The notes: a model not told the origin generated them from the sequence alone. A stretch of 64,000 bases of DNA from an uncultured Methanosarcinaceae archaeon (GCA_963733675.1 CAVTET010000003.1:320001-384000), one strand, 5' to 3'; shown: positions 1,284-56,140, counted from the stretch's first letter. Program-made: numbers and translations.

Positions 1284-1580
1284 CTAAGGACTATTTACTA
1301 AATAGTTCATGGTAGAAATAAATAAAGACTATACAAAAGGTATATAATAAAATAAATCTAACAATAAATTAAAGGTTCTTAAATACCTTTACACAGAACT
1401 CTATGAGCTGCAGGTATCTTTGCCATGCTTTTTCAATGCAGCTCATAAGATTAACGTTTGGACATCTACCATCGTTGATGACCACCAGATTTAGAGGATT
1501 TCACAAAGACAGTAGCTGTAATATCTCCAAATAGGTCTTCGAGGGTAGGTATGGAAAAGCCTGTATTCAGGATCATGAAA
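1284..1580 (+). ncRNA. Conserved extended promoter plus structured leader/ncRNA, copy 1
   Basis: TACTAAATAGTT 1296-1307, TATA at 1341; hairpins 1370-1391 and TATGAGCTGCA(1402-1412)/TGCAGCTCATA(1437-1447); homologous to copies at 5.1, 5.5, 17.4 and 55.9 kb. Confidence 0.6.
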
Positions 1581-1625
1581 AAATTTTCAATCAAATCTTT
1601 AAAATATACCTAGTGAGGAAATTTC

Positions 1626-2006
1626 ATGAAAGTACTACTCGTAGATAATGATCCCTTATTTCTGGAGCTGTCAAAGACTTTCCTTGAAGTATTTCACGGA
1701 ATAACATCCGATACTGTGAATTCTGCAAGGGAAGCACTCGCCAAATTGGAGAAAGATTCCTATGATGTGATAGTTTCGGATTATGATATGCCTTTTATTG
1801 ATGGCATCACATTCTTGAGAAGTATACGTAATAAGAAAATTAGCATTCCTTTTATTCTTTTTACTGGATTCGGAAAAGAAGAAATCATGCACTTGGCAAT
1901 AGAAAATGGTGCAAATTCTTTTGTACATAAAACAAGTAACCTAAAAATCCAGTATTCAGAGCTGTCAAAGAAAATATTGCAGATTGTAAGTAGTAGTACA
2001 GGTTAG
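1626..2006 (+). CDS. Single-domain response regulator (CheY-like receiver)
   Basis: VLLVDND, VSDYDMP phosphoacceptor motif, FILFTG, conserved K; GAGG RBS upstream. Confidence 0.9.
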   Translation: MKVLLVDNDPLFLELSKTFLEVFHGITSDTVNSAREALAKLEKDSYDVIVSDYDMPFIDGITFLRSIRNKKISIPFILFTGFGKEEIMHLAIENGANSFVHKTSNLKIQYSELSKKILQIVSSSTG

Positions 2007-2012
2007 CTAATT

Positions 2013-2669
2013 ACACACAAAAATCGATTTTAAAACGATCCACTACCGAAAAATGCAAGAAATGATCTATTGACAAGTTGAAAACTACAAGCTTGCTTTA
2101 GAGTAAGAGGAGATGAAAACCTGAATCCATCAGAATTTGCATCGATTATGTTTACAATAGTACAGAATATAGATGAATACGAAGATTCAGATGCATACCA
2201 CGAAACTTTAGTAGAACTAATGAGCAATGCGATTAAGTCCGTTGCCGAGTGACCATAAAATAGTGACTGATAAAGAAAAGAACAAAATTTTCATGCTACT
2301 GGGCCTTCGACTCCCTTTTGATTTATGATTTTTGAAGCAGTAAGATGTAATTATTATACACGATTCTGAGTTTTTCTAGGTCAGATCATAAGCTGAGGGG
2401 ATAATAAAGTAAATAAAATCTTTAAATTGGTGTACCAAACAAATGCTAACTTTGAAAAGACTAACCTTCAAGAACCTAACCTTGAAAGAGTTAATCTTAC
2501 AAAGGCTAACATTAAAAGGGTTCTTGTAGATAGATACAAAACAAGTCGTAAAGAATGTCTTGAGAATATAATCGAAAAGAGGGGGAGACACATTTGATTT
2601 GACACATTTGATTTTAAACAAACATGTTTTTTCAGTCCAATTTGCTCTTCTGTTTACAAATCTAAATGT
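2013..2669 (+). repeat. ~650-bp direct repeat, copy A
   Basis: Colinear high similarity to 4236-4861 (e.g. CTACCGAAAAATGCAAGAAATGAT, CCACGAAACTTTAGTAGAA); contains decayed gene remnants including pentapeptide-repeat codons near 2445-2510. Confidence 0.9.
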
Positions 2670-3229
2670 TGTTTCATTTCCATGATCACAATGTAGGATG
2701 CCCATTGCTTTAGGTGTGGATACCATTCCTTATAGTCGTGATATGCAATATAACTAATCCTTTACATATCTATTTTTGCCACAACTAGAATGTAAAGTCA
2801 TCATCATTTGCGATCGATTATTGTTATTGTACACAATGGTGTTGCTGATGTTGTCAACAAGTCTCCAACCTCACTCCCCAAATTTTGATAATATTATAAA
2901 CGTTTAATTGCCTAAATACAAATTTAAACCACCGAGGATTCTGATGAACCTTTCATTTTCACGAGTAATCTAGATATCATATCTAAGCATATGACAAAAT
3001 TTAGGGACTGATAAAAATCCTCTATAGTGTCATATAGTACGTATTTTTATACTTCAAGTACATAATGTCTACATTAATTCCACTGGAAGTTAATCACAAT
3101 CAATCAAAAACCTAGTAATAATAAATAATCTTTCATTTTATCATTTTCGACATGTTTCATTTATACATTCATATATTGTTGCAGAATATAAATTGCATAG
3201 AGATGAATAAAGATATTCAAGTAATTTAT

Positions 3230-3784
3230 ATGATCCCAAGAAAAGCTTTTGTGACAAAAGGTACCGGAGTTCATAAGGCCAGATTAGCATCTTTTGAGCT
3301 TGCATTGAGAGCTGCAGGAATAGAGAAATACAACCTTGTATGTGTTTCAAGCATTCTACCTCCCAATTGCAAAATTATATCTAAAGAAGAAGGACTTTTA
3401 AAGCTAAAACCTGGTGGCATTGTTCATTGTGTACTTGGAAGGAACGATGCCAACGAACCACATCGTTTGATGGCTTCAGCTATAGGAACTGCTGTTCCAG
3501 TGAATGAAGAAAATTACGGCTATATTTCTGAGCATCATTCTTTTGGAGAAGAAGAAATTATTGCGGGAGAATACGCTGAAGATCTGGCAGCAACAATGCT
3601 TGCAACGACGCTCGGCATAGAATTTAATGCTGAAATGGCCTGGCATGAGAGAGAACAGGTATACAAAGCTAGCGGGTATATCTTTGACTCATTTCATATT
3701 TGCCAGACTGCAAAAGGTGACAAAGATGGTAAATGGACAACGGTTGTAGCAGCAATGGTCTTTGTTACTACAGACTATAGATAA
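3230..3784 (+). CDS. pdaD: Pyruvoyl-dependent arginine decarboxylase
   Basis: SFELALRAAGIEKYNLVCVSSILPP with the SS self-cleavage site, GYISEHH; likely start MIPRKAF at 3230 (ORF open from 3152). Confidence 0.92.
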   Translation: MIPRKAFVTKGTGVHKARLASFELALRAAGIEKYNLVCVSSILPPNCKIISKEEGLLKLKPGGIVHCVLGRNDANEPHRLMASAIGTAVPVNEENYGYISEHHSFGEEEIIAGEYAEDLAATMLATTLGIEFNAEMAWHEREQVYKASGYIFDSFHICQTAKGDKDGKWTTVVAAMVFVTTDYR

Positions 3785-4235
3785 ACTCCAATCTTTGGCT
3801 GTTTGTTTATAATATCTACATAAGCAATTTGTTGAAATCTGAAGTTTATCGAAATTCTCCACATACATTTCCCATGTTCAAATAAAATGTGGAGAAATTC
3901 TTATGCCCATTGTTTTCAATAATCTAATTCACAACTCTTTCTCGGTCAAATGTGATAAGTGCTGATTCTTTGAGCAGGGCCACCTACTTTAGAGACTTGT
4001 TGAAACTTTTGTTTCGATTGAAACTTTTGTTCAGAAACAAATTTTCATATAATAAATATTAAATAAAGAATCTGAATAATTACATTATCTGTATTAGGGA
4101 TTTAGATTGAATCCTTATTGATGTGTTTTGGACCCGAAATATCTCTCTTCAAAAACACAGATTTTACATCAGGATTGGCTTAAAATGAATGTGAGAACGC
4201 ATTAATAATCATTAAAAGTAAGATAGTTGATTAGA

Positions 4236-4861
4236 ACACATAAAAATTGATTTTAGAACTATTGCTACCGAAAAATGCAAGAAATGATTTATTGACAAGT
4301 TGAAAACTGCAAGCTTGCTTTAGAGTTAACAGGAGATGAAAAACCTGAATCCATCAGAATTTGCGTCGATTATGCTTACAATAGTACAGAATATAGATGA
4401 ATACAAAGATCCAGATGAATACCACGAAACTTTAGTAGAAATAATGAGCAATGTGATTAAGTCCGTTGCCGAGTAATCATAAACTAGTGACTAATAAAGA
4501 AAATGACAAAATATTCATGCTCAGAGGTCTTCGATTCCCTTTTGGTTTATGACGTTTTGAAGCAGTAATATGTAATTGTTATACACGGTTCTGAGTTTCT
4601 CCGGATCAGATAATAAGCTGAGGGGATAATAAAGTAAATAAAATTTTCAAATTGATGCAACAAACAAATGCTAACCTTCAAGAACCCAATTTTGAAAGAG
4701 TTAATCTTAAAAAGCAGCATTAAAGGGTTTTCCTAGATAGGTATAAAGAAAGTCGTAAAGAATTTCTGAGAATATAACCAAAAAGGACTGCAGACCGATT
4801 TGATTTTAAACAAACAAGTTTTTTCAACCTAATTTGCTTTTCTGTTTTCAAATATAAATGT
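4236..4861 (+). repeat. ~630-bp direct repeat, copy B
   Basis: Homologous to 2013-2669 along its length. Confidence 0.9.
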
Positions 4862-4934
4862 AATTAAATCTAGTTATATTTCATTGACTATCAAAACCTT
4901 TAAACGGATTCTCTATCAAATTGCATGCAACGAC

Positions 4935-5025
4935 CCCCTTAGTCACAAAATCAACTTTTTTGACATTTTAGACCAACCTTATCCTCTAAGCTAATAAAAT
5001 AAAAGAGCTCACATTTTGGAATTTA
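4935..5025 (+). repeat. Degenerate partial copy of the structured RNA family
   Basis: AAAATCAACTTTTTTGACATTTTAGA...GCTAATAAAAT matches the 3' part of the copies at 5.28-5.34 kb and 5.64-5.69 kb. Confidence 0.5.
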
Positions 5026-5111
5026 CGCAATAATCGATCAATATCATCTCTTTGTGTTTATATAACTCTACAAAAATCTGCTGCGGATACTGGTGCAAGG
5101 ATATTGGATGG

Positions 5112-5345
5112 TCCAAAGATCAGGACTTGATAATTTTCTTACTATTTAGTTAAAGTTAGTGCTATTTAGAGTATATGCAAAAAGTATATAACAAATCAAA
5201 CGGGGTTATAATTAATAGGTTTCCCCACTTCTAGTAGAGACTTTCCATTGGGCTGTAGGTAATTTCCCCCGCAGCTCATAATATCAACTTTTCTGACATT
5301 TTAGATAGCTTGCTCACGTACGCTAATTAAATGAAGTAGATTTGA
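5112..5345 (+). ncRNA. Extended promoter plus structured RNA, copy 2 (no downstream ORF)
   Basis: AGATCAGG ending 5124, TACTATTTAGTT 5140, TATATAA 5185; stem TGGGCTGT(5249-5256)/GCAGCTCA(5271-5278). Confidence 0.55.
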
Positions 5346-5497
5346 CCCATTCTGGGGAGATTTCAGGCATTTTCTTGAGTAGAGGAGGGGTATTTTCTTC
5401 ATTGGGTAGATTATAACCATGTGTAGGGACTGAGAATTAATCAGTTCATAATGAGCTTGATCGGCTTCATCATGAAACTAATGTTATTTAATATATA

Positions 5498-5695
5498 TAC
5501 TAATTAGTTCAAGTTATTATTATTTAGTATATATGCAAAAACTATATAATAAATCAAATATATTTATAATTCATAGGTATTGCTCATACCTTACAATAGA
5601 CTTTCCGACAAGCTGCAGGCATCTCTTCACCTGCAGCTAACAAGATCAACTTTTTGGCATCTAGGATCAGCCAGATCATTTAAATTAATAAAAAA
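5498..5695 (+). ncRNA. Extended promoter plus structured RNA, copy 3
   Basis: TACTAATTAGTT 5498, TATATAA 5543; AGGTAT/ATACCT hairpin; perfect stem AGCTGCAGG(5611-5619)/CCTGCAGCT(5630-5638) with loop CATCTCTTCA. Confidence 0.6.
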
Positions 5696-5708
5696 AACTA
5701 AGTAATTT

Positions 5709-5918
5709 ATGGCTTTCGACGATGCGGTGGTTGTTATTTACATGCTCGATGACAAAATAAAGGCAAAACAAGCAGTACATATTATGGGTACTGGTATAGT
5801 TGGCGGTGCATTTTGGGATATTTTGATAGGAATATTTGCTTTGTTTCTCTTAATCGCGGAATGGACTGAAGATAAGGCATTCGAGAGATTAAACAAGTTC
5901 AAAGGATTGATTAAATAA
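5709..5918 (+). pseudogene. DUF1269-like membrane protein, internally deleted remnant
   Basis: DDAVVV...KQAV...G.GIVGGAFW..LIG motif typical of the family, but only 69 aa. Confidence 0.6.
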
Positions 5919-6136
5919 AAGCCAACCCATCGAAATCTGCTCAATCAATCTTAGTGAAGATTACTATTAAGAATATTTTCGTGGGTTGAATAATTGGCTT
6001 ATCCTGAAATATAATTTTCAATCCGTGAGTGTCTTTAAATTTGCGAGTTTACAGAAAAAATAGCTTGCTGTCAATCTGCTTAATTAAGTTAAATCACAAT
6101 CATAAATAGAAAAATTCCAAAAGGTCATTGCCATGG

Positions 6137-6240
6137 TTCACAAGATTAGGATTACATGCATCTAGTAATGTTTAGTTATATTTATTAATATATTGACTAT
6201 TTGCAAAAGGCATATATTGAATCATATCCAACTAAATATT
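6137..6240 (+). promoter_or_regulatory. Extended promoter, copy 4 (degenerate)
   Basis: TTCACAAGATTAGG ending 6150, TAATGTTTAGTT 6166, CAAAAGG-CATATAT at 6211; same 16 and 45 bp spacing as other copies. Confidence 0.55.
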
Positions 6241-6556
6241 ATGATATATAAATGCACTATAACATAAATCCTGGAATAAAATATTTTAGTGTAACTATAC
6301 ATTGCTATATACCTGAAAATGAAAGCTTATCAAGAAGCTGAATTAATAGATACCCCAAGCAGAAGGATCTTAGATCTTTATTTACTCAATCTTAAGATAA
6401 TAGATCTTAAGTAAGACCTTTATATTACATAGGTCCTATTCATGGAGCTTTTCAGCTACTTCTAATATTTTCTTATGTCCAAGCCTTTGCTCGTATTCTG
6501 GATCATGACTAAATTTTCAAGCGAAGCTTCAAAATATAATCTAGGGAGGGAATTTC

Positions 6557-6730
6557 ATGAAAGTGGTACTCGTATATGATGATCTCTTATTTCATAAGCT
6601 GTCAAATAATTTCCTAGAAGTATTTCACGAAATAACATCCAATATTGTGAATTTTGCAAAGGAAGCACTCATTAAATTGTAGAAAGATTCCTATGCTATC
6701 ATAGTTTCGGATTATGATTATACCTTTTTA
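6557..6730 (+). pseudogene. Truncated paralog of the response regulator at 1626
   Basis: Nucleotide similarity to 1626-1800 plus shared upstream ~70 bp; in-frame TAG near 6680 and truncation after ~58 codons. Confidence 0.85.
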
Positions 6731-6931
6731 GTACGATATACTCTGTGATCAAGGCTGAAATCTTGTTTAATCTGATAGTAATACTTTATATTTTTGTGAT
6801 ACCTTTACTTGTGCACCATTGTTTGAGCAATTTGAGAATATATTTTAGAATGTTAAACTATAGAGATAGTGCATAAGAACTTATAAATTCATTTAGCTCC
6901 GTAGAGGGTCAAACTATGGAGAGAATCAATC

Positions 6932-8206
6932 ATGGAAGGTTCATGGTATTACTACAAATATCGCCGGTTCATAAAATGGTTGGGTTTATACTTGGCACTT
7001 GCTGGGCCAGGCATAATTGTGATGGTAGCGGATAATGATGCAGGGGGTATCACAACCTATGCTGCAACAGGAGCCAAATTTGGCTTTAACTTAATCTGGC
7101 TCTTGGTACTACTTGGCCCAGTAGCATATGTTGTTCAGGAAATGACTGTGCGATTAGGCGCGGTCACCAAGCGAGGACATGCAGAAGCTATATTCGATGC
7201 TTTTGGCTCTTTTTGGGGCTGGTTCTCGCTAATAGACTTGGGCATCTTGGATTTTCTTACGATGGTAACTGAGTTTATAGGAATGACAGCTGCTCTACAG
7301 ATATTTGGCGTGCCGCCTATATTAACGATAATTGGTGTCTCCATCTTGATGATCTCAATATTCATTCACGGAAGATACTGGACATGGTAAAAGATAGTAC
7401 TCCTTTTCTGTGTGCTCAATCTGATCTATATTCCTGCGATTCTGCTTATTCACCCCAATTTTAGCGATGTTACCAAAGGTTTGATTCCAAGTATTCCCAT
7501 AAACGGGTTCACAGGTGATTTTTTCTTCTTTTTCATGGCGAATATAGGAACTACCATAGCCCCCTGGATGATATTCTTCCAACAGAGCTCTGTAGTAGAT
7601 AAGGGTATGACTGAGAAAGATATTTCCTTTGGAAAATTCGATACTGCAGTTGGTGCATTCTTTACAGTATTAGTTGCAATAGCGTGTGTAATTATCACAG
7701 GCACGTTGCTCTTCAAGCCCGGTGGAATAGATATCGAAAGTGCTGCTCAAGCTGCAATTGCGATTATGGGCAGCTCCCCAATCGTTGGTTCTGCTCTTGC
7801 CATCGGACTCTTCGATGCCGGACTTCTTGGTGCTATGTGCATATCATTGGCAAGTTCATGGGCTATGGGTGAGGTTTTTGGATGGGCTCATTCTATCAAC
7901 AACAAGGTTTCAGAGGTACCTATGTTCTATGCCTTTTATTTCCTGAGCTTGATCTTCGCGGGCATAGTTGTAATAACCCCAGGAGCTCCATTGGTGTTGA
8001 TAACTCTTTTCGTGCAGGTGGTAGCTGTTACTCTTCTTCCTGCAGCTCTGGTTTTTCTGCTACTTCTGCTAAACAATGAAGAGATGATGGGGAAATATAA
8101 GAATACCCTTACACAAAATATTATGGGTTTTTTAATTGTATTTACTATAATTATTGTCTCTACTCTTTACGCCTTAAGCGTGATCTTCCCGGAGATGTTT
8201 AAATGA
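6932..8206 (+). pseudogene. Nramp-family divalent metal transporter (Mg-type), single in-frame nonsense codon
   Basis: GPGIIVMVADNDAGGITTY and ANIGTTIAPWMIFFQQS motifs; 6932..7390 and 7412..8206 are in the same frame, separated only by TAA at 7388-7390. Confidence 0.85.
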
Positions 8207-8254
8207 GCGTAGATAACATGGAAAACTATCAGGAGACGAAAAATATGGTAGACT

Positions 8255-8458
8255 ATGTTGATTGACAGATGTGAGAAGGGAAAGATCAGCCATGTGCTAA
8301 GAGGATGGAGAAAAGCAGTAAACGATATAAACAAAAAATACAGCAAGCCACGATTGAAGATGACACCTTTGGTCAGGTTTTCACTCTTTGCTCTCAGACT
8401 TTATCTAATAATGTTGGTTGTTATATTAAGTTATAAATTCTACACAATGGTGAGGTAA
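8255..8458 (+). CDS. Small single-TM membrane protein of the Nramp-MgtE operon
   Basis: Lies between the Nramp and MgtE-N genes; C-terminal hydrophobic helix (LFALRLYLIMLVVILSYKF). Start may be slightly upstream. Confidence 0.6.
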   Translation: MLIDRCEKGKISHVLRGWRKAVNDINKKYSKPRLKMTPLVRFSLFALRLYLIMLVVILSYKFYTMVR

Positions 8459-8473
8459 GCTGGAGGCAGATAT

Positions 8474-9748
8474 ATGAAAGACGAATCAAATAACAACAAA
8501 ACTGAAAGCATCCTTTTTTTGAGTGAGGTGATGAATGCTAAAGTCCTCCTTAAAGGCAAAAAAATAGGAAAGCTCTTGGACCTGATCATACTTGAAAAAC
8601 ATAAGGCTGCAGAGGTCACATACGTAGTAATAAGTCGACCTTTTGGTTATCCTTCATTAGTAGTACCATGGAATAATGTCAGTTCATTCAATGAAAAGTC
8701 TGTAACTATAGATATCGATGATGTAGAAAAGTTTGCATACAAAATTCCCGAGGGATTTATTCTTCTGAAGGATTACATTCTAGATAAGAAGATTTTAGAT
8801 TTAGAGGATACTGAGGTTGAGGTTGTCTACGATATCAAGATGGTTATGAGTAAAAACAAACTTTATATTACTGATGTAGACCCCTCCAAAAATGCGCGTT
8901 ATCGTAGGCTAGGTCTTGATAAATTTACTCATTTGATTCTCAAGGATAGTGATAAAAGTGAGGACGAGCTTATTCCATGGTCATACGTCCAAGCTCTACC
9001 CTCCAATATTGGAAGCTTTAAGGGAGATGTAAAGTTAAATATACTGAAAGAGAAGCTAAACGATCTTCCACCTGTGGATATTGTGGAAATTTTGGAGGAT
9101 TTGGATCACGATCAGAGGCTGACTGTTATCAATCAGCTCGAAGAAGAGCATGCATCTGATACCTTGGAGGAAATTAGTCCGAATATGCAAAGGGAGATTA
9201 TCTCCTCTCTGACTAAGGAAAAAGTTGCATACTTGATTGATATGATGACTCCGGGCCAGGCGGCTGATGTACTGTCGGCTTTGACTTTGGAGGATCAAGA
9301 AGCTATAATGGAACTGATGGATGAAGAAAATCTCAATAAAATAAAATCTATCCTTGAGACGCGACAGGATACGATAATCAACCTCATAACTGAGAGATAT
9401 CTAAAAGCTCAGCCTGATGAAACAGTAGAGATTGTGGAGAATGCGTACCCCAAAAGAGCAAAAGGTAAAGATGAAATAATGTACATCCACGTAACCGATA
9501 AGGATAATACGCTATTGGGTGTGATTGATGTGAAGGAGCTTCTTCAGGCAGATAGTCAGGCACTTTTAAAGGACATCATGAATAAAAATGTCATAACCTT
9601 GGATAAAGAGAGTAGTATTGGAGAAGCCACGAAGATGTTCTCTAGATACGGCTTCAGATCGCTTCCCGTAACGGATAATGACTATAAAATAGTTGGAGTT
9701 GTCAGTCAACGAGATGTCGTGAAGCTAACACTTCACTTTTCGGAATGA
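8474..9748 (+). CDS. PRC-barrel / MgtE N-terminal / CBS-pair protein
   Basis: N-terminal PRC-like KIGKLLDL, MgtE_N helical region (LPPVDIVEILEDL), tandem CBS domains (LPVTD..KIVGVVS); GGAGG RBS. Confidence 0.88.
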   Translation: MKDESNNNKTESILFLSEVMNAKVLLKGKKIGKLLDLIILEKHKAAEVTYVVISRPFGYPSLVVPWNNVSSFNEKSVTIDIDDVEKFAYKIPEGFILLKDYILDKKILDLEDTEVEVVYDIKMVMSKNKLYITDVDPSKNARYRRLGLDKFTHLILKDSDKSEDELIPWSYVQALPSNIGSFKGDVKLNILKEKLNDLPPVDIVEILEDLDHDQRLTVINQLEEEHASDTLEEISPNMQREIISSLTKEKVAYLIDMMTPGQAADVLSALTLEDQEAIMELMDEENLNKIKSILETRQDTIINLITERYLKAQPDETVEIVENAYPKRAKGKDEIMYIHVTDKDNTLLGVIDVKELLQADSQALLKDIMNKNVITLDKESSIGEATKMFSRYGFRSLPVTDNDYKIVGVVSQRDVVKLTLHFSE

Positions 9749-10066
9749 AAGACGATTTTCTTGATACCAACTACCCAGAGTAATCGCTGAAGATTTATAG
9801 TAAGAGATCTAAAAGGATTTGAGGGAACAAAAGAAAGTTTAGAAATTTAGTTCTGATTTTTTTCTCCCAATTTTCTGCAGATCTTTCATCAAAAGTAGTA
9901 TTTTTCACGATTTTTCTCATTGAACATTATAGAGTACCTACTTTTCCCTATACCATAGACCCAGGTTTTCTATTCTATATGGTGTCAAGATCTATTTTGT
10001 GACTGAGCTCTCTTAGGAAAGCTTCAGTTATTCAGAACATCGACAGTTATATAATAAAAAATTCAC

Positions 10067-10924: not shown

Positions 10925-10926
10925 GC

Positions 10927-12580: not shown

Positions 12581-12587
12581 TTTTTAA

Positions 12588-17360: not shown

Positions 17361-17640
17361 CTAAGGACAAGGTACTAATCAATTAGGTTATAACTATATA
17401 GAATATGTGCAAAAACTATATAAAGTATTGAATCTCTTTATAATTTAGAGGTGCTCAAGCACCTTTAAACAAACCTTCTATCGGCTGCAGGTATCTCTTC
17501 ACTTGCAGTCCACAAGATTAACTTTAGGACATTACTGTCGTTGATTATCACAAGATCTAGAAGATTTCACATAGACAGTAGTATCTAATTAAATATGCAT
17601 TTGAGGTTCAGGTAGGAAAAGTCCTGTATTCAGAAACATG
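17361..17640 (+). ncRNA. Extended promoter plus structured leader RNA, copy 5
   Basis: TACTAATCAATT 17373, TATA 17417; hairpins AGAGGTGC-TCAA-GCACCTTT, GGCTGCAGG(17483-91)/CTTGCAGTC(17502-10), TACTGTC(17533-39)/GACAGTA(17574-80); colinear with 1284-1580. Confidence 0.65.
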
Positions 17641-17715
17641 ATTATATGGCTTCTTTTAATTCCCACTTGACACAAGACAAACAAAAATTTTGGGGTAAAG
17701 AAAAGAGGTTATGGA

Positions 17716-18432
17716 ATGAATGAGATTGAAGAAGCTAACTTTAACGAAGGTAACTTTGAAAGAGCTAATCTTAAAAGAGCTAACTTTAAAGAGTATAAAC
17801 TTGAAAGATCTAATCTTATCGGAACTGACTTTATAAAAGCTAACCTTAAAGAATTCTACTTTGAAGGAGCTAACCTTAGGGAAGCTAATCTTGAAGGAGC
17901 TAATCTTGAGGGGGCCAAACTTAGAGAAACTAATCTTAAATGGTGTAACCTTAGAGGAGCTAACCTTCATAAAGCTGATCTTAGAGAAGCAAATCTCAAA
18001 GAAACTAATCTTGAAAGAGCTAACCTCATAAGGGCCAACCTTATAAAGGCTAACCTGCAAGTAGCTGATCTTGGGGAAGCTAACCTTCAAGGGGCTAATC
18101 TTAGAGAAGTTAACCTTGAAGGAGCTGACCTTAATTGGGCTATACTCAGAGGGGCTAACCTTGCAGGGGCTAACCTTGCAGGGGCTAATTTTACAGGGGC
18201 TAACCTTGAATGGGCTAACCTTATAAAGGCTAACCTTCAAAGGGCTAACCTTACATGGGCTAACCTTGAAGGAACTAACCTTGAAGGAGCTAATTTTGAA
18301 GGAGCTAACCTTAGTGGGGCTCATTATTTATCATTTGGGCAGCTTTCTAAAGTGAAAACACTTCGTAATACAAAATTAAATGGAGATATCTTCAAATCAC
18401 TAAAAGAGCAACATCCCACCCTTTTTGAATAA
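17716..18432 (+). CDS. Pentapeptide-repeat protein
   Basis: About 39 A(N/D)Lxx pentapeptides, C-terminal QLSKVKTL cap; AGAGG RBS. Confidence 0.95.
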   Translation: MNEIEEANFNEGNFERANLKRANFKEYKLERSNLIGTDFIKANLKEFYFEGANLREANLEGANLEGAKLRETNLKWCNLRGANLHKADLREANLKETNLERANLIRANLIKANLQVADLGEANLQGANLREVNLEGADLNWAILRGANLAGANLAGANFTGANLEWANLIKANLQRANLTWANLEGTNLEGANFEGANLSGAHYLSFGQLSKVKTLRNTKLNGDIFKSLKEQHPTLFE

Positions 18433-19529: not shown

Positions 19530-19560
19530 CATTCAAAACCGTCAATATGAAATTTCGATC

Positions 19561-46144: not shown

Positions 46145-46250
46145 AATTCATGAGATCAGGGCTAAAAAATTTATGTACTAAATAGTTATATCTAATAAAA
46201 TATAGTATATGTTCAAAAACTATATAAATAATAGCATATATTTAGAATCA
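46145..46250 (+). promoter_or_regulatory. Extended promoter, copy 6 (lacks the structured RNA)
   Basis: TTCATGAGATCAGG ending 46160, TACTAAATAGTT 46176, CAAAAAC-TATATAAA at 46221. Confidence 0.7.
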
Positions 46251-46325
46251 TGTGAATAATGTTTGTGTAATCTCTAGTTAACACAGGGAAAACAAAATTT
46301 TGTGGAAAATGAAAGGAGTTCTAAT

Positions 46326-47961: not shown

Positions 47962-48633
47962 CATTTGGATAAAAATAAATACTATTTTAAAAAGATTACG
48001 TACCAAAAGTTCGTAAAATCTAAATAACTTTTTACCTTCTTCCATCATCGCAAAAACAGGATTCATCTTTTTTATAAATACATAGGTTTTATAACAAAAA
48101 CTGTGCATCATTATAGACGGTAAATTTTCTTTTTTGCGTTAAAAAGTGTCGATAGTCAATCGGAATTCACAAAACCTTTGGTAGATTACTAATCTTTTAA
48201 TTAATAACAATAACATATTGTCTGTGTAGTTATTGAAATTATAAACTCGATGTTTTAAAACTTCTTTTCCCTTACGTGTTTAGCTCTTTTTCTAATATAT
48301 TGAGCAATTCCTATTTTTCATTGGGAAGAAAAACAGGATAAACCCATTTAGGATTTGTACGCGATCAGAATTTGGTATGAGATTTAACTTAGTTATTTTT
48401 TAGAAGGAAATCCATACTAAATTTAGGAATTTCTTTGAAAACAATAAAAACATAATTAATATCAAATTGTTGTTCAAAATTAAAATTTCTTATGTAGAAG
48501 TAACTTTCGTTCCGAAACTATTTTTTGTGCAATTAATTAATAATAATTGTGGGGTTTTTGTATATTTTAACTGAAATTAGTCTATTAAGAAAAAGGGTCA
48601 AATAACTTTATCAAAGAGATGAGGCACAAAATT

Positions 48634-49395
48634 ATGAAGTTTCACACGCAGATATTTACAATCTTAATTTTGGCTATTTTAGTGGCCACTGTCGCGAGCA
48701 CAAGTGCTCAACATTACAATGGAGCAAAGCAATGGAGCAAAGGATAAACAAATAACATCGTTGAAGTTTCCGAATATTATGAACAATCCCGTAACACCAT
48801 GGAATCATGAGCCCATCTATCCTGTAATTGATCCCACAGCTTATATCCATCCACAGGCTTCGGTCATTGGAGATGGGATAATCGGTGCTAATGTGATGGT
48901 TTCTCCCATGGCATCTGTCCGGGGTGACGAGAGAATGCCGATTTTCATAGGTAAGGATAGCAATGTCCAGGATGGAGTTGTGATTCACGGCCTCGAGACA
49001 ACTGATGAACAAGGTAAGCCGGTCAAAAAGCACCTTGTTGATGTCAATGATAAAAAACACTCGTTTATGTGGGAGAAAATGTTACTCTTGCCCACCAGTC
49101 CATGGTGCATGGTCCGGCTTATGTAGGTAATGATACATTTATTGGCTTTCAAACTCTTGTTTTCAAGGCAAAAGTAGGAAACAAATGTGTGCTTGAGCCA
49201 AAATCAGTAGCTATTGGCGTAACCATTTTTGACAATAAGTACATTCCAGCAGGTATGATTGTCACTTCCCAGACAGACGCTGATAAGCTGCCAATAATTA
49301 CCGAAGACTTTGCATACAAGCATACAAATGAAGCTGTAGTATACGTAAATACAAACTTGGCTAAAGGATACAATAGAGCAGCTGCACCTGCTTAA
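48634..49395 (+). pseudogene. cam: Gamma-class carbonic anhydrase (Cam), two frameshifts
   Basis: MKFHTQIFTILIL signal, NPVTPWN, DPTAYI.PQASVIG, SNVQDGVVIH, LAHQSMVHGP, HTNEAVVYVN; frameshifts at a 13-bp duplication (48717-48742) and near 49060. Confidence 0.92.
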
Positions 49396-50318
49396 CCACT
49401 ATGGAAAATCAAAATTCATTATGAATAGAAGGTCAATAAGTGATGAAATATTAAAAAGCTGAAAATATTATATGTATGAACGGATAAATATAAATGAAAC
49501 AAAGTAATTATTTAGCTTATATACTGAACTTATTGATACTCATTCATCAACTTATACCCCTGCTCCAATGTCGAAGCAAAAATGATCCAAACAACGTTGC
49601 GAAATAATATTTGCTTAGGACTATTAAAAATATTTTTATAGACCAATTAGGACTTACGCGGGTGAACTCAGAAATTAACAGCTTAAAGCATAAACTACAT
49701 AAATCAAGAATTCAACTTCAAAGGATGCAATCATTTTGATTGTATCTTAAAAGCGTAAATCACAATTTAAGGGATTTCGATAAAACTCTGATTGATCGTC
49801 TTCTCAAAAATTCGCATAGCTTTACATATCAGGAAATAATTGAATTACAAGCGACTTCAGATATTGTGGGTTTGAATCGTGTGTATGATTGGGCCTTTAA
49901 AATAAAGTGGAAAGGCATGAAAAGAGCTGATCTTTTTAATAACACAAAAATTTATGATAATATTAAAACAGTTATTTTCAACATGGAATGGATATTCGAA
50001 TTCTTTTGACCTGAATTATCTGTTAAAAAACAATATCATTCGAATATACCAAACTAAATAATCGAACTCTGCCTCAAGAGATAAGTTTGCCACTCGAACT
50101 TAAGTTATGAGAGAAAATCGGATCTATGAAATAAAGCTTTTAATTGGGACTGAGCAGTTAAAATGAAAGATTAATAACATTAAACCTTTAATTATTTTAA
50201 AAGCAAAAGGATTATAACAAATCATACGGGGATAAATTTTGTCAGCCAAAAAGTTATAATTGGATAAGGGAATGATGTGTAGAATTCATTGAAACTAAAT
50301 TAAATTTTTGGAGGGTCA

Positions 50319-50507
50319 GTGATTAAACTTACAACAAATGAAATCCATGAAATTGAGACTCTTATAGAACAATTTTCAGAAGAATCAGAATGCACAACAT
50401 GTATTGAAAGAGTAATTAGAAAGTTGGAATTCAACGGGAAAAGCTATAAGATGAAGGTAATTATCGAAGCTGAAGAAGATTATTTTGAGGATATTTTTAC
50501 TGATTGA
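50319..50507 (+). CDS. Small acidic hypothetical protein with CxxC
   Basis: GTG start with GGAGG upstream; 62 aa. Confidence 0.5.
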   Translation: MIKLTTNEIHEIETLIEQFSEESECTTCIERVIRKLEFNGKSYKMKVIIEAEEDYFEDIFTD

Positions 50508-50744
50508 TTAATTAAAAAGTAGTCAAAAAAGCACCAGTCTAAAACATCAAATATTTATTTTTCTGGAATTATTGGGAACTTGAATGCAAGAACGCTGGCG
50601 CAGTTTCATTAAAACAGGTCGGTAAGTCAGAAAAATAGGCGGGCATGAACACCCACCTATATAGTTGATTCATGTATCTGTTGTGATTTAAATACCATGA
50701 TGCTATAAATTTAGTTTGTGTTTATCTATCTAATAGTACTTATA

Positions 50745-50900
50745 GAGTGCGGAAGGTCACGAATACCCCCGACTTTAGGTAGGCTATGACGTTAACCTTC
50801 ACCTCATTTTGTTTTCTTTAAACACCTAAATCATCGCTTCATTATAAAATGGGTTGGTTCTTGGAACCTTGGTCTGAGGTAGTACCCTCTCATACCTATG
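50745..50900 (+). mobile_element. IS200/IS605 left-end-like remnant
   Basis: Long imperfect hairpin GAGTGCGGAAGGTCACG...GACTTTAG...AACCTTCACCTC (50745-50805) preceded by TTATA; no transposase ORF. Confidence 0.55.
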
Positions 50901-50989
50901 ATTTGGATGTGATAAGCATTGGAAATTAAACACCTTTATCTATGTATCGAACAAAATAAATTTCAATTGAGTCATCCCTATTTGGATGC

Positions 50990-51352
50990 TTGTACCTAAA
51001 TTATGCTTTAGTCATGAAGGGCTTAGAGGGTAGCATTAATTCAGATGGAACCAAAAGAGAAAACATTTTTTGGTCCTTAGTTCAGTGGACTTTTTTGGGA
51101 CCATCTCTCATAACTTCGATAATCGCTTTTTATTTCTTAATAGAACAACCGTCAGTTCACAATGGTGGGCTAGAACTTTGTGTACTTTTGGGAGTAAGTT
51201 TTTTGTCCTTATTTGTAAGTCGGTCAGAATTCGACTCGTTTGAGAAAAGCTGTCGAGATATAGATTCGGAATGTAAAGATGAGTTAGAATGTGAATGCAC
51301 GAAAAAATATAACTCGATACAAAAAACTTTTAAAAGAGATACATTGTGCTGA
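50990..51352 (+). CDS. Hypothetical two-TM protein
   Basis: Two hydrophobic segments and an acidic Cys-containing tail. Confidence 0.45.
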   Translation: MYLNYALVMKGLEGSINSDGTKRENIFWSLVQWTFLGPSLITSIIAFYFLIEQPSVHNGGLELCVLLGVSFLSLFVSRSEFDSFEKSCRDIDSECKDELECECTKKYNSIQKTFKRDTLC

Positions 51353-51733
51353 CTTCCAAGAAGCAAATAGTTTTTAGTTCGTAGCATGTTTTATTTTTGA
51401 GAATTAACTCTTTCAATTTGGATAGCCATTTTGATTTCTTTAATACATCAGTTGTTAGTTTATAAGAACTGGATTATTAGTCAACTTTGCATACTCTTTG
51501 TATTTAATTTGATTTTATTTTGTTTAAATAGGTTAGGATTTCGCTCGCTTTGCCCGATAAAAATAAAACTCAATAAAAAGCTTTAAAATAATCGGATTTT
51601 TGGCTCATTTAGATGAAAATAGTCATTCGAAAGTATTTAGATCATTATATCGAAAACAGCTCTAACCCTGGTTTTAGAGCTAGGGAGATCTTCCAGTCTG
51701 TAAGATCTTTGAAGTCATGAATTAAGCATAGTT

Positions 51734-51960
51734 TTGTATGAAAACTTCAGCGTCAGTAAAACGATATATCCTATTTTTTGTAGTGACAGAAAAAGGACAT
51801 GGAGTCAATCAGATTTTGCAGAATTTTCGGGAGCTGATCGTGTTATTGATTGCCTGGATAATAGCTATGAAGCAATGCTAGGAAAATGGTTTGGCAACTG
51901 TACAAAGTTAAGTATTGGTGAATGGCAAAAAATAGCCTATAAGGCCTCTGAGTGCTTTGC
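51734..51960 (+). pseudogene. ABC transporter ATPase fragment
   Basis: GADRVID.L..SYEAMLGKWF....LSIGEWQKIA resembles a degenerate LSGGxWQ signature region. Confidence 0.6.
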
Positions 51961-52187
51961 ATTAAGGATGCTTACCTTATAGTAAGTAGGTACAAAATAT
52001 CCTCTAGTGTAGACAACAGCAGTTTCAACAACAACAATAATCTAACGGAAAGCTTCTTCAAAACTCGGGGAGATTTTTGCTTCAAAGTGCTTTTCGATGT
52101 ATTTCCCAGAATTTTAAAAAAATCTTTACTATTTTCATATATTTTTCCATCAATACTTTCTCTGTCACTATCACCACCTTTAAACAC

Positions 52188-52634
52188 TCAAGTTTTACTG
52201 TATTTTCCCATAAGTTCCCCTTCTGCTATGATATGGCCTATCATCTCGCTTTCAAGCTCTTTTCTGCTTTTCCCTGCTTTTAGGCCGAGCTGCTTGTCTA
52301 GAGCATATACTCTGAAAAAATACCTATGGGTTCCTGAAGGAGGGCATGGCCCCCCATACCCTATTTTCCTGAAATCATTTATTCCCTCAACCCCGGGTAT
52401 GCTGTCTTCGTCTATTTTTGCAATAGGTACTATATTCCATACAATCCAGTGAGTAAATATCTTCATGGGAGCATCCGGGTCATCCATTATAAGAACTAAA
52501 CTTTCAGCTTTTTCAGGAATACCTCTGAATTCCAGAGGGGGATTTATATTCTCCGCGCTACAAGTGTACTTTCTCGGGATAGTATCATTAGATTCAAATG
52601 CGCTGCTAATAACTTTTATGTTTTGGATGTTCAT
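52188..52634 (-). CDS. YbhB/YbcL (PEBP) family protein
   Basis: SSAF, INPPL, LIMDDPDAP, FTHWIVWN, GYGGPCPPSGTHRYFF. Confidence 0.95.
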   Translation of the reverse strand: MNIQNIKVISSAFESNDTIPRKYTCSAENINPPLEFRGIPEKAESLVLIMDDPDAPMKIFTHWIVWNIVPIAKIDEDSIPGVEGINDFRKIGYGGPCPPSGTHRYFFRVYALDKQLGLKAGKSRKELESEMIGHIIAEGELMGKYSKT

Positions 52635-53215
52635 AATTTCATCCCCTTTGGCATTATCAAGAAATCCTCCGCTTTTAAGTAACTTATTCTATCCTAAGCT
52701 CATACAGAAATCAAGAGCATTTTCGCAATTAAGAGCATCCAAACTAGATTAATTTTTCTTGTCATGGATGATTCAACCTTCTGATGACCGTAAAACTGCT
52801 CAGAACTATGGAGGATTTCGATAAACCCTAATTTGTTACTGTTTGTTTATAATGCCTACATAAGCATTCATAAAAATATGAGGTTTATCTAAATTCTCTA
52901 TTATATTAAAACTAAAGAGATATAACTTTAAGGCTTAATAGCAAAGCACCTGCTAAAATTCAACTTTAAAATACCTCAAGTTTAAATTCAAAAACTGATA
53001 CTAGCAGTTTAATCCTGATACTTGATTCCAGGCTCAAAATCCAGACTCAAACTCCGCTTCATTAGGGACTAAAGTTGTAGAGACGGCAGATTTCAGGTAT
53101 GACCTCCAAATAATCTGGTTTAGTCGACTTTGTAGAAAATGCATCCATGAAAGATTTTTTGAAGCCGTTCTCTGAAAGCAACAGCCTAAAATCATGAGGC
53201 TTTGAAAGTCTGAAA

Positions 53216-53422
53216 TCAGTCTTCTACTTCAAGGGCTTGAATTACATCATGGACCTCTAGTTCTCCTTTGGCTACACGCTGAACTAGTGGATAAATAAAT
53301 GAACAATCATCTATTGCTGCCCAGCGTTCTTCTCCTACTACTCTGACAACTTCATCGAGTATATCGCCACATGTTTTACAATATCTTCCTTTGCTTTCTA
53401 ATCCACAAGATTCGCATTTCAT
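53216..53422 (-). CDS. Small zinc-ribbon protein (68 aa)
   Basis: MKCESCG...YCKTC, WAAIDDCSFIYP; start taken at the Met before the first CxxC. Confidence 0.7.
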   Translation of the reverse strand: MKCESCGLESKGRYCKTCGDILDEVVRVVGEERWAAIDDCSFIYPLVQRVAKGELEVHDVIQALEVED

Positions 53423-54257
53423 TGAAAATACCCATAAAACTATGGAGCTGTCGAAAATAAATAAATTATGGTGAAATGTAAGTATATTTACACAGTCACT
53501 AGAAAATCGGGTGTAGAGTAAAAAGAGGAACGAAAAAAATAGTTCCTGATACTTCAAACTTATAGAGCGTTATGAAAGGAAGGTCAAAAAAGAGAAAGAG
53601 GGTAAAATAATAATCGTTTAAATGTTCAACTTGTTCTAGCAAGCTTCTCTTTCTAGTGTAAGCAAAATAAGGAAACTAATCACCTAATAAACCATCTACC
53701 TTAGTTATTCTACACATTATGAGTTAATAACGATAGGTGCATAAACATTACACTCGTAGATATAGTAAGGAATGGGCCACTCATAGGCCCAAAGTAGGTT
53801 TCTCATTCAATGGACATAGGAGAAAAGTATGCTAGCACCATAAAATCTATCCTAAAGTCGCTAAAGTGATCTATATGGTCTTTGGGGCTAAGAGGTTTTG
53901 GTGACCGTGGTGACTATGTCGTAGATCTTAGTAGAATCTTGATCTTGATAGAGCCCATGACATAGACTACGACTGTTTCAGTGGACTGTTTAGCCATAGC
54001 AGTTTGTTTGGTTACGGTGGTTTGGATGAGCTATGTTTATTTGAAATTAATTAAAAAACAGTAAATAGCGAATTTATTTGAGATTTATTTGATGATCCTC
54101 GCTAATTTCGGGGATTTTATTTGAATTATTTGATTCATTCCGATATTTTTTGCCATTTTCATTTAACAAGTTGATTAATTTTAGGATTTGTTTGTAAATT
54201 TATGCCTACGCAGGAAACGTCAAAAACGTTTATATGTCCGTATAACTCAGCTTTCCA

Positions 54258-55035
54258 TTAATTAGCCTGGAATTGCTTTATATCCACAGTCTGATCTGGC
54301 TTTACAGTACGGTAAAGATGATGGTCAGATGGAATCACTTCAACCATAGTATCGATCATTTCTTGTGGATCGCTCTGATAGGAGAAAGCATCTCTGTAGT
54401 CAGGGAGTTTTATTAAACTTTTTTCAGGATCGTACCACTGATACATATTTTCTGCTCCAGTATCATTAAAACCAGTTCTGAAGTCGCCTGGGTTAATAGT
54501 CACGACTTTCACGCCATAGGGCTCAAGCTCTTCTTTCATTGTCCAAGCAATGGTTTCGATAGCAAGCTTAGTTGCACAATAAGTTCCTACAAATGGGGCC
54601 TTCAAAATTTCAGCCATCGATGAAATCCAAATAACCTTGCCATGATTTTGTTTTACCATTTTACGCACAATTAACCCTGTGTCAGCTCTAGATGACTGAA
54701 CACATTCGTCTCAAAGGATTCATGTACCTTTCCACAGGTATCTCGACCATTGCACCACTTTTCATAATTCCGGCATTATTAACTAGAATATCAATATCAT
54801 AGGTCAGAGCATGCTGTCGATCGATATAATCTCGAATATCGAGTTTAATTACTTTAAGTTCGATAGCTTGTTCTTTAGCTTCACATCTTAACTCCCAGAC
54901 TTGGGGCCAGATTTGCACAGCAGCAATAACTTTATGACCTGCTTTGGCCAAAACAAATGCTACCCCTTTACCAAAACCATGCCCAGTACCAGTAATAAGT
55001 ATTGTCTTGCTCATAATTTTGTCCTTATTTTTCAT
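54258..55035 (-). pseudogene. Short-chain dehydrogenase/reductase, frameshifted
   Basis: TGTGHGFG, DILVNNAG in 54688..55035; YCATK catalytic motif and NPG in 54258..54668. Confidence 0.88.
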
Positions 55036-55859
55036 TTATCATCTCTCTTACTCGTTTCCCCTTAAGTTTAGTTAGCATCTCGTTAGGTAACCTTCCGATG
55101 GCTACCGGGAAATTACTAGATTTTTAAATTGGTTAATTTCCTTTGAACACTCACACAGTGACTGATATTTTTAGATACCAAATGTTAACTTTTATTGAAG
55201 AAAGAATTCTTCCTGCAAATTCAGTGTTTCAGTATAAAATGCAAAGCTAACTATATTTTAGTCCAGATTTGAGATCGTATCATCTAAGAGCTAGTTAGTA
55301 TCGTCAACCTAGATCTTCAAAGTTAGGTACTCCCGAATCCCTGCAAGAGCTTTTTCATTCTACTAGATGATTGTTTCAACATTTATTTCACCACGTTATG
55401 GTTAAAAATTAAAATAGAATGGAATTTGTTTTTGGTGACTAGTCAAGCTATCAAAAATTAGTTGATAGATATCTATTCTATTACACCAACAAATTTCGAT
55501 GAACTACAAAACTTATTTAGCTTGTTAGTTATTTTAAATTAATTATAAAAAAATAGTTTATAACCAAAAAGTCTTTGCCAATTGAATATTTCAACATTGA
55601 ACAACAATTAGATATAAATTATGTATTACGATAATTAAGGAATAATGCCCACTTTTCTATCATTCATTTTTCCACAAAACATTTTAAAATCTAACATAAG
55701 GCGATTCGACTCTTGACATCAAAAAGTAGTCGATTCTGGGGCGATTTAAGTCATATTTTTGAGTCATATAGGGAAATCCTAAGGAATAATCAAAGAACCT
55801 CTTTTAGGTGCTGAGATTACGTCATTTATTGATTGACTGAAGAAGGCGCTTGTCTGTCA

Positions 55860-56140
55860 TAATTCATGAGATCAGGACCGTATAATTTCCGTACTAATTA
55901 TTTTAAATTATTAATATTTGAAATATGTACAAAAAAATATATAATTGATTAAATATAGGTATAATTTGAAGATTTTCCAGTGCCTTCAAGCAGATCTTCT
56001 ATTAGGCTGCTGGCATTTCCTAACCTGCAGCTTACAATGTCAACTTTTTGACATATACTGTCGTTAATGACCATGGGGTCTCTGGAATCTCACAACGGAC
56101 AGCAGCTGCAGGATATCCAGATAGATCTTCGAAGGGTAGC
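55860..56140 (+). ncRNA. Extended promoter plus structured RNA, copy 7 (standalone, no ORF)
   Basis: TTCATGAGATCAGG ending 55876, TACTAATTATTT 55892, TATA 55938; stems TTGAAG/CTTCAA, TAGGCTGC(56003-10)/GCAGCTTA(56027-34), ATGTCAA(56037-43)/TTGACAT(56048-54), CTGTCGTT(56058-65)/AACGGACAG(56094-102). Confidence 0.65.

Follow-up and report, generated by a model that had tools for sequence, protein, structure and literature searches.

Results

A repeated unit in the window

The stretch of DNA analysed here, called the window throughout, comprises 64,000 nucleotides from an uncultured Methanosarcinaceae archaeon (GCA_963733675.1, CAVTET010000003.1:320001-384000), equivalent to C3:320001-384000 of the 3.92-Mb assembly (15 contigs, ~35.5% G+C, genome 92% complete). 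Together with genes for a response regulator, a pyruvoyl-dependent arginine decarboxylase and a pentapeptide-repeat protein, it holds several copies of a short repeated unit in which a promoter-like box stands before an RNA head of ~118 nt with conserved hairpins. From the sequence of the window, the unit had been proposed to be a dispersed family of free-standing RNAs of 120-200 nt with four hairpins, each beginning 25-30 bp past a TATA box, at 1370, 5215, 5573, 17447 and 55966, with a fragment at 4940.

A covariance model built for the family, R1, was run over the window with all filters off and matched six copies, all on the plus strand (E-values 6e-20 to 5e-9); the sole further match, at E 0.26, was not credible. 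All five proposed places were recovered by the model, and the fragment is in fact a full-length, degenerate copy (4878-4992, 64.3 bits). The extent of the repeat had to be redrawn. It does not begin at the RNA, since conservation also takes in the promoter box and 60 nt or more upstream, and the real unit is a promoter, an upstream box and a head of ~118 nt fused to many different downstream sequences (bodies), rather than a free-standing four-hairpin RNA.

Across the whole genome R1 gave 57 matches at E<=1e-3. Using the window copies as seeds, nhmmer returned 60 genome matches, or 64 after one iteration, among which 49 distinct near full-length copies could be counted. These copy numbers place the family far beyond chance. 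Rfam 15 gave no match in the whole window at gathering thresholds and none at E<=1 in six representative loci, in agreement with the original prediction, which had recognised no named family. The core DNA had no match among phage or plasmid records. No such repeat or leader in Methanosarcina turned up among the titles and abstract openings of the literature searched, and "not described" refers to that literature and to Rfam only. On this basis the element, an amplified promoter with a folded RNA head, appears to be a new RNA family that is absent from Rfam.

Architecture of the unit

Conservation was profiled as column identity in a wide alignment of the 49 copies. The unit opens with a run of TTAGT/ACTAA-like half-sites (TACTAATTAGTTTAAGTTAGTACTATTTAG, column identity 0.5-0.8), followed by the box GCAAAAA-CTATATAA (0.7-0.9); across the five places first proposed, a 20-nt box TATATGCAAAAACTATATAA is shared upstream of the RNA. 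A spacer of ~25 nt separates the box from hairpin P1, whose arms are retained while their sequence drifts, and a variable linker leads to P2 (GGGCTGCAGG...CCTGCAGCTC), a strong GC-rich hairpin of 9-10 bp (GCUGCAGG/CCUGCAGC). The arms of P2 reach ~0.8, and the P1 loop, the linker and the P2 loop (4 to about 30 nt long) stay at 0.4-0.6. Past P2 the head continues with a ACAAGAUCAAC box, a tract of U5-7 and a small GAUC hairpin; column identity is 0.8-0.9 over ACAAGATCAACTTTTT and about 0.6-0.8 over the adjoining GACATCTAAGATCAGCCTGATCACCTAAGCTAAT, after which homology among all copies stops. The unit is short (about 150-240 nt) and non-coding: read by eye, its consensus has no ATG and has stops in all three frames. 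No conserved open reading frame (ORF) runs divergently from the conserved left arm (ATGAATTATAA on the other strand).

The form of the box and its position relative to P1 point to a B recognition element (BRE)/TATA promoter aimed at P1, and its conservation across copies bears out the archaeal-type promoter that had been proposed. Archaeal transcription begins ~25 nt past the TATA box; in the unit it would start ~20-25 nt after it.

Part of the head consensus (...CUGAUCACCUAAGCUAAUAAA) resembles the 3' end and trailer of the organism's own 16S rRNA (CTGGATCACCTCCTAAGCAATAAA; 16S at C1:807695-807749), the similar part being CTGATCACCT-AAGCTAATAAA near +140..+175. An anti-Shine-Dalgarno mechanism was rejected, as exact GATCACC occurs in just 10 of the 49 copies and ATCACCT in 7; with so few, the 16S likeness may have arisen by chance or represent weak anti-Shine-Dalgarno mimicry. 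Motifs of the H/ACA, C/D-box, integron attC and bulge-helix-bulge (BHB) kinds were also considered and dropped, their defining boxes being missing on inspection by eye.

Pairing and covariation

Single-sequence folds contained P2 in nearly all copies and P1 in many, and RNAalifold on a plain MAFFT alignment of the 49 copies returned just 6 pairs of P2. Four helices (P1, P2, the GAUC hairpin and P3) were proposed by hand and then tested by comparing their pairing with that obtained after sliding the partner column by 1-3 columns. On an unfitted MAFFT alignment of 46 copies, 76.2% of cells paired versus 35-39% for the slid columns, with double changes at 20 of 27 pairs. The fitted alignment comprised 121 sequences from the organism's own genome, five named metagenome-assembled genomes (MAGs) and ten loci of other genomes of the genus. 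Here 79.7% of cells paired, compared with 34-48% in the slid controls; both sides had changed at 23 of the 27 pairs, and none of 500 shuffles attained the observed covariation score. By helix, double changes were found at 6/6 pairs of P1 (79.1% of cells paired), 8/10 of P2 (90.4%), 4/4 of the GAUC hairpin (77.4%) and 5/7 of P3 (65.7%). Individual pairs switch between types, as at 10-48 (GC 73, AU 25), 12-46 (AU 36, UA 24), 81-128 (GC 81, AU 16) and 85-124 (CG 73, UG 30, UA 9).

Pairs of G-U outnumbered A-C in P1 (98:35), P2 (145:46) and the GAUC hairpin (53:30) of the fitted alignment, and also in the unfitted one (34:21, 56:27 and 22:15, respectively). This excess indicates folding of the strand that the promoter would transcribe. 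The covariation of P1 and P2 supports selection on RNA-like stems, which was the core of the original prediction.

The stems quoted there for P1 were all present (AAAGGT/ACCTTT in copy 1, AGGTAT/ATACCT in copy 3, AGAGGTGC/GCACCTTT in copy 5 and TTGAAG/CTTCAA in copy 7), as was the GCTGCAG stem of P2, with 11 bp in copy 1 by RNAfold and 9 bp in copy 3. P3 did not hold up as a 7-bp helix, its outer two pairs being unpaired in 106 and 81 of the 121 sequences, and is at best an AU stem of 4-5 bp around CUUU. A fourth stem, CTGTC/GACAG, does occur in copies 5 and 7 as claimed; it is limited to an 11-member subfamily with long leaders and was not chosen by RNAalifold. A mutual-information scan of all column pairs was dominated by subfamily signal and gave no convincing extra helix, and an alternative helix between the 5' strand of P1 and a distal ACCU box, present in only a few copies, was dropped.

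Distribution and a single-copy form

An exact-pattern scan of 185,579 species genomes yielded 69 stretches. By a tally of record titles, ~43 of these come from five MAGs of peat, bog or fen origin that bear the name Methanosarcina sp. or Methanosarcinaceae. We read the remainder, single stretches in unrelated bacteria and archaea, as chance matches. Among the stretches from the scan, nhmmer confirmed 67 copies. When R1 was run over 151 genomes of the taxonomic family, matches occurred only in the window's own genus, in 12 of its 34 other genomes, and none in the other 15 genera. Genome G150 has at least 24, genome G144 has 4 and the other carriers have 1-2 weak matches; five complete genomes of the genus, tested separately, had no copy.

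In five genomes (L119-L123) the single match is one orthologous locus with the same half-sites, box, P1 and P2. This locus has no ACAAGATCAAC/T-run and continues instead as ~170 nt of very conserved further leader, then GGAGG and a 46-aa zinc-ribbon ORF (Cys-x2-Cys...Cys-x2-Cys) ~236 nt past the head. The leader of ~235 nt is as conserved as the ORF itself, whose start codon is ACG in place of ATG in three of the five genomes. The window's own genome, at 92% completeness, has no homolog of the ORF nor of its leader beyond P2. An orthologous single-copy leader in five genomes implies that the module predates its amplification and began as a 5' leader; judged by these comparisons, the ancestral state appears to be the single-copy 5' leader of a small zinc-ribbon gene. 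From that state, one clade of peat Methanosarcina would have multiplied the module to over 50 copies in each genome, some of them in tandem arrays beside the co-amplified small-terminase-like gene and others solo.

Sequences downstream of the heads

The 400 nt following the head were clustered across the 49 copies. One head type proved to be joined to more than 25 unrelated downstream sequences. Six heads lead a paralogous ORF of 52-69 aa (MAFDD...), which we read as having a hydrophobic, membrane-like segment (by eye, after residue 27 in the 69-aa ORF of copy 3). A long leader of ~300 nt is carried by four copies and by copy 7, and at least three copies lead another small ORF, MNTDT.... In several copies the head is followed by a second repeat, M2. 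Another two groups, both non-coding, comprise three members apiece, and 21 bodies are singletons.

Eleven members, from at least four genomes, make up the long-leader subfamily, and nine of these members precede pentapeptide-repeat or response-regulator genes. Genes right behind heads are co-directional with them in every case counted: MAFDD ORFs 6/6, pentapeptide genes 3/3 and the response regulator 1/1. Pfam confirmed the response regulator and the pentapeptide protein as the genes led by copies 1 and 5, and the earlier statement that copies 2 and 7 have no ORF was borne out, an ORF scan finding none downstream of copy 2 and copy 7 having no gene behind it, just short ORFs. Copy 5 and its pentapeptide gene have orthologs in G150, 85% identical along all 1201 nt, and in G144 (69%); at this locus the P1-P2 segment is 88% identical to its ortholog, the coding sequence 85% and the upstream DNA 78%. 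Copy 1 with its response regulator recurs as locus L115 in the fen_51 MAG.

A T-run of T5-T7 lies ~95 nt past the presumed start in 30 of the 38 copies outside the long-leader subfamily; six of the 11 long-leader members have it reduced to T3 or less. Oligo-T acts as an archaeal terminator, and these counts hint weakly that the T-run may be a terminator that gene-leading copies tend to lose. Copies 1 and 5 and the ancestral copy have the features of a structured cis-regulatory 5' leader, which about half of the copies do not. A riboswitch was rejected as a candidate: the downstream genes are heterogeneous or absent, and the conserved parts are simple hairpins.

A co-amplified terminase-like gene

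Elsewhere in the genome, arrays of two to four heads in the same direction lie divergently from a gene of 140 aa (M-RPSKLTPDIQK...). The distance from head to gene start is 390-481 nt in nine listed places (eight without an assembly duplicate) and exactly 394 nt in five, and the 394-nt spacer is conserved along its whole length. The protein matched PHROG 4102, "terminase small subunit" (E 6e-22, residues 3-118), and no Pfam family. Its 30%-identical homolog ORF8 of Methanobacterium virus PhiF3 directly precedes putative large terminase and portal genes. Similarity to viral small terminase subunits (TerS) and the adjacency of a large terminase in the virus would class the 140-aa gene as a small terminase gene. 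Examples are C7:47011-47433, C13:5697-6128 and C13:20750-21199, with ~35 further places and none in the window.

Counts of the gene were 38 in G000 (the window's own genome), 45 in G150, 50 in G165 and 12 in G166; each of the 37 remaining genomes in the sample had 0-3. Internal stops interrupt many of the copies. More than 660 close relatives were found in metagenomes, and one distant match each in the phage and plasmid collections. The large-terminase Pfam families PF03354 and PF03237 were not found in the organism's own 92%-complete genome. At ~18 loci a convergent partner gene lies within 30-160 nt of the terminase-like gene (Table 1); its product of 133-159 aa has an RHH-like N-terminus, a coiled coil and a C-terminal ...KKPWWRFW. 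The DNA common to the terminase-like loci extends only from about -400 to +500 around the gene start (~0.9 kb).

M2 is ~125 nt long (AAGATCGATTGTGGGACGATTTAAGGCATTTTTTGAG...ACTGAGATGAAATCAGT), with 43 matches in the genome. Three placements occur: M2 precedes a head by ~85 nt, follows a head directly, or lies ~100 nt upstream of the terminase-like gene; in the last case it may, on the opposite strand, provide that gene with a promoter or leader. Near two of the arrays there is a gene for a primase-helicase or for a UvrD-like helicase. We also observed that C13:1-6.1 kb and C13:45.4-50.2 kb are inverted duplicates and that C2 repeats the same sequence, with identical nhmmer matches; this reflects either redundancy in the assembly or a genuine inverted repeat in an element, integrated or extrachromosomal, that carries a primase-helicase gene.

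Features in and around the window

Positions of the copies, their neighbours and the partner gene are listed in Table 1. Three heads, at 4878, 5210 and 5568, make up a head-to-tail array that repeats every ~330-360 nt. The arginine decarboxylase gene is an ordinary housekeeping gene. The surroundings of copy 7 are a mosaic of several other repeat families; three more short ones lie at 53655-53900, 55350-55637 and 56282-56387, with many copies in the related genome G150. Outside the window, decayed TPR-repeat gene remnants lie upstream of one head (C1:485400-486270, positions 700-1570 of locus L131), and tandem units of ~100 nt matching such remnants occur in G150.

Table 1. Features of the window and partner genes elsewhere in the assembly (window positions unless a contig is given).
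Feature	Position	Strand	Remarks
Copy 1 promoter box ACTATACAAAAGGTATATAA	1328..1347	+	BRE-like A-run and TATA-like box; aligns with the box of all copies
Copy 1 RNA head	1366..1489	+	R1 59.4 bits, E 4.7e-9; long P2 loop; AAGATTAAC box with T-run shortened to TTT
Copy 1 long-leader body	1490..1625	+	Reaches the response-regulator start codon; alignable with the long-leader subfamily (11 members)
Response-regulator receiver gene led by copy 1	1626..2006	+	Pfam PF00072, E 1.6e-22
Pyruvoyl-dependent arginine decarboxylase gene	3152-3784	+	Pfam PF01862, E 5e-59; between copy 1 and the three-copy array
Degenerate full-length copy	4840..4992	+	R1 match 4878-4992; nhmmer match C3:324851-324985; promoter box and P2 decayed; first of three tandem units
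Copy 2	5172..5324	+	Box 5172-5191, head 5210-5324; R1 78.9 bits
M2 repeat between copies 2 and 3	5333..5457	+	nhmmer match C3:325333-325457, E 1.4e-23
Copy 3	5530..5686	+	Best-scoring; R1 match 5568-5686, 116.6 bits, E 6e-20; box 5530-5549
Copy 3, P1	5575-5580/5586-5591	+	
Copy 3, P2	5611-5619/5630-5638	+	
Copy 3, ACAAGATCAAC box	5640-5650	+	T5 at 5651-5655
Copy 3, GATC hairpin	5665-5668/5675-5678	+	
69-aa ORF (MAFDD...)	5709..5918	+	Starts 23 nt past the copy 3 head; no Pfam family
Copy 5	17404..17558	+	Box 17404-17423, head 17442-17558; R1 84.1 bits; T-run shortened to TTT
Copy 5 long-leader body	17559..17715	+	Holds CTGTC...GACAG; in the 11-member subfamily alignment
Pentapeptide-repeat protein gene led by copy 5	17716..18432	+	Pfam PF00805, E 5e-91
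Promoter-box-only fragment	46200..46248	+	BLAST match C3:366200-366248 to query positions 17-65, 82% identity; no R1 match
M2 repeat ~90 nt upstream of copy 7	55730..55834	+	nhmmer match C3:375730-375834, E 5.5e-9
Copy 7	55924..56081	+	Box 55924-55944, head 55963-56081; R1 94 bits; ATGTCAA/TTGACAT stem enclosing CTTT
Copy 7 long-leader-type body	56082..56210	+	Long-leader alignment to ~56150; no gene behind, just short ORFs nearby
Partner gene	C7:47543-48022	-	
Partner gene	C7:88112-88591	-	
Partner gene	C13:21287-21688	-	
Partner gene	C7:60513-60986	+	

Transcripts

RNA data came from four metatranscriptome contigs of relatives with 90-95% identity (word shares 0.05-0.13); stretches that these leave bare count as evidence neither for nor against a transcript. 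One RNA-library contig of a relative spans 1396-2265, covering the copy 1 leader and the response-regulator gene. This is compatible with transcription of the copy 1 leader together with its gene, and indicates it weakly.

Discussion

The reading we hold to be somewhat more probable than its negation is that the unit brings together a co-regulated promoter and a structured head, which functions as the head of a leader or of a small RNA (sRNA), with the U-tract as a possible attenuator. One transcription factor acting on the shared upstream box would switch on all copies. The 5' hairpins would stabilise the RNA or act as a protein-binding handle; the U-tract would either end much of the transcription, giving an sRNA of ~95 nt, or bind an Sm-like protein; and read-through past it would lead to expression of the body. 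Action of such an sRNA in trans is conceivable. What the original prediction had in mind holds in its core for P1 and P2 and for novelty relative to Rfam: a structured, promoter-driven, multi-copy RNA, sometimes a leader and sometimes alone. The free-standing RNA and a strong P3 do not survive. It had also missed the 57-copy genomic scale, the tandem arrays, the link to the terminase-like gene and the single-copy ancestral leader.

Several points weigh against this reading. P3 is poor, and in it A-C beats G-U by 92:26. In the other helices the excess of G-U is smaller in the unfitted alignment, at about 2:1. Because the copies are paralogs related by a tree, cell counts overstate the number of independent events, and an alignment fitted with a covariance model leans towards that model. 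On the RNA side, another metatranscriptome contig crosses the copy 1 promoter (1271-1462), and contigs of this kind cannot show starts, ends or strand and may contain DNA. The 5' and 3' ends of the RNA are inferred. Among the gene-leading long-leader members, which are not independent of each other, 5 of 11 keep T5. About half of the copies have no plausible ORF within 800 nt, so a leader function is not general. Finally, the tight link to the terminase-like gene and the tandem arrays would equally fit a role at the DNA level.

That link, together with one head type on more than 25 bodies, implies spread by some copying process, and a co-amplified small-terminase-like gene makes an origin in a mobile element or selfish cassette likely. 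The terminase-like family may itself be an archaeal satellite-like or selfish cassette. A bolder version, which we consider doubtful, is that the head RNA, the terminase-like gene and the "...PWWRFW" partner together belong to one selfish or virus-satellite-like cassette, previously undescribed, that spread among peat Methanosarcina, the tandem promoter-head units being its expression or regulatory arm. Such a cassette might, for example, respond to a helper virus or to a stress: once either of them turned on the shared promoter, a set of co-induced sRNAs and small membrane proteins would be fired, and the ACAAGAUCAAC-U-tract might be a handle for an Sm-like or cassette-encoded protein. Alternatively, the repeat could be a DNA-level site of a selfish or virus-satellite-like cassette, such as a binding, pac-like packaging or recombination site for the terminase-like protein; its palindromes would then work as DNA, and its likeness to a promoter would be secondary. 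The set distance of the 2-4-unit arrays from the 140-aa gene (~390-480 nt, exactly 394 in five cases) would fit such a site, as would the PHROG 4102 match, the neighbours of the PhiF3 homolog, the expansion of gene and RNA module in the same genomes (45 genes and at least 24 modules in G150) and the internal stops in many gene copies, which are frequent in selfish DNA. We nevertheless find this unlikely. Compensatory changes keep the pairing and G-U exceeds A-C, whereas DNA bound by a protein is expected to conserve its sequence; a P2 loop that varies from 4 to ~30 nt is ill-suited to a recombinase site with a fixed spacer; only ~10 of the 57 cores are near the terminase-like gene; the ancestral copy heads a conserved leader and ORF in five genomes without such a gene beside it; and neither PF03354 nor PF03237 was found in the 92%-complete genome.

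Two further explanations were weighed. If most copies were decaying segmental duplicates of one ancestral leader, without present function, their stems would merely be inherited. Degraded copies are indeed visible (for instance window 4878-4992), in two copies a deletion between AAGATCA repeats has removed the P3 region, ~1 kb is common to C1:485.4-486.4 kb and C12:33.3-34.3 kb at 72% identity, and neighbouring genes are often pseudogenes. Passive decay is nonetheless quite improbable, given that divergence is strongly uneven along the unit, that double substitutions restore pairing at 23 of 27 pairs, that the promoter box is the most conserved part even in copies only ~70% identical overall, and that orthologs are kept across species. 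Still less probable to us is a MITE (miniature inverted-repeat transposable element), or another non-autonomous transposon, with a chance outward-facing promoter. The unit is short, non-coding, high in copy number and patchy (many copies in few genomes, 0-4 elsewhere), its head abuts more than 25 unrelated sequences, and the glmM-like locus of G150 lacks the element. At that locus homology begins just ~265 nt before the gene, and the break between the two genomes is ~440 nt away from the head. The presence of terminal inverted repeats had been named in advance as a ground for calling the unit a MITE. In a comparison of the flanks (-140..-20 and +120..+260) that covered exact repeats only, 19 of 49 copies had an inverted repeat of 8 nt or more, compared with 25 of 49 shuffled ones. 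The right end of the element is fairly constant near +175; the left edge is not sharp, subsets of copies sharing a further 60 to 1000 nt upstream that includes M2 and TPR-gene remnants. Because of the missing inverted-repeat signal and the variable left border, a classic MITE was rejected. The copies also stand head-to-tail in arrays, no transposase with matching ends was seen, and around two copies no clean empty site with target-site duplications could be recovered, the flanks being mosaics of other repeats.

Relation to known systems

The nearest comparison within the genus is with the sRNAs and small-protein-encoding RNAs (spRNAs) of Methanosarcina mazei (sRNA162, PMC3510493; bioRxiv 10.1101/2025.10.28.685009), which, as far as their titles and abstract openings tell, are likewise small transcripts with their own archaeal promoters. 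Some combine a leader with an sRNA, and some code for small proteins, a role that the MAFDD and zinc-ribbon ORFs would have here. They differ in that no head copied more than 50 times on many bodies turned up in those same openings.

The Correia elements (CREE) of Neisseria, the enterobacterial ERIC/IRU repeats and "putatively mobile promoters" resemble the unit as short, non-coding, multi-copy sequences that bring a promoter and hairpins to unrelated genes. Correia elements have terminal inverted repeats and target-site duplications; the Methanosarcina element shows no inverted-repeat signal, and has an archaeal BRE/TATA promoter, tandem arrays and the link to the terminase-like gene. The omega-RNA of TnpB/IscB and the bridge RNA of IS110 are also multi-hairpin scaffolds from proliferating elements that continue into variable sequence, but none of these proteins is adjacent here, where only the 140-aa terminase-like and the RHH/coiled-coil genes are linked. 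Phage satellites such as phage-inducible chromosomal islands and Staphylococcus aureus pathogenicity islands (PICI/SaPI) share with the present loci a small terminase without a large one in the host genome, and here there are many partly decayed copies. They differ in that the shared unit of the present loci is ~0.9 kb, with no integrase, capsid or replication set consistently linked. We know of no phage satellite of the PICI/SaPI type established for archaea. Type I toxin-antitoxin systems such as hok/sok and AapA/IsoA have multi-copy small hydrophobic ORFs behind long structured 5' leaders, whereas just 6 of the 49 heads precede a MAFDD ORF, and no antisense RNA gene was seen, although none was looked for.

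Significance

To our knowledge, Archaea have few known families of structured RNA, and hardly any of them has been described as multi-copy. Here one promoter and RNA-head unit has been copied more than 50 times, with its pairing under selection, and is attached to many small genes and bodies. The covariance model can be used to mask or label ~1% of the intergenic space in carrier genomes. The co-amplified small-terminase-like gene, in a genome where no large-terminase family was found, hints that archaea may have their own equivalent of phage satellites, which would be new. If the heads are transcribed, an environmentally important clade of peat, bog and fen methanogens would have in them a regulon, already assembled, of sRNAs, leaders and small proteins, and the family would be a natural experiment in the spread of a promoter-leader cassette.

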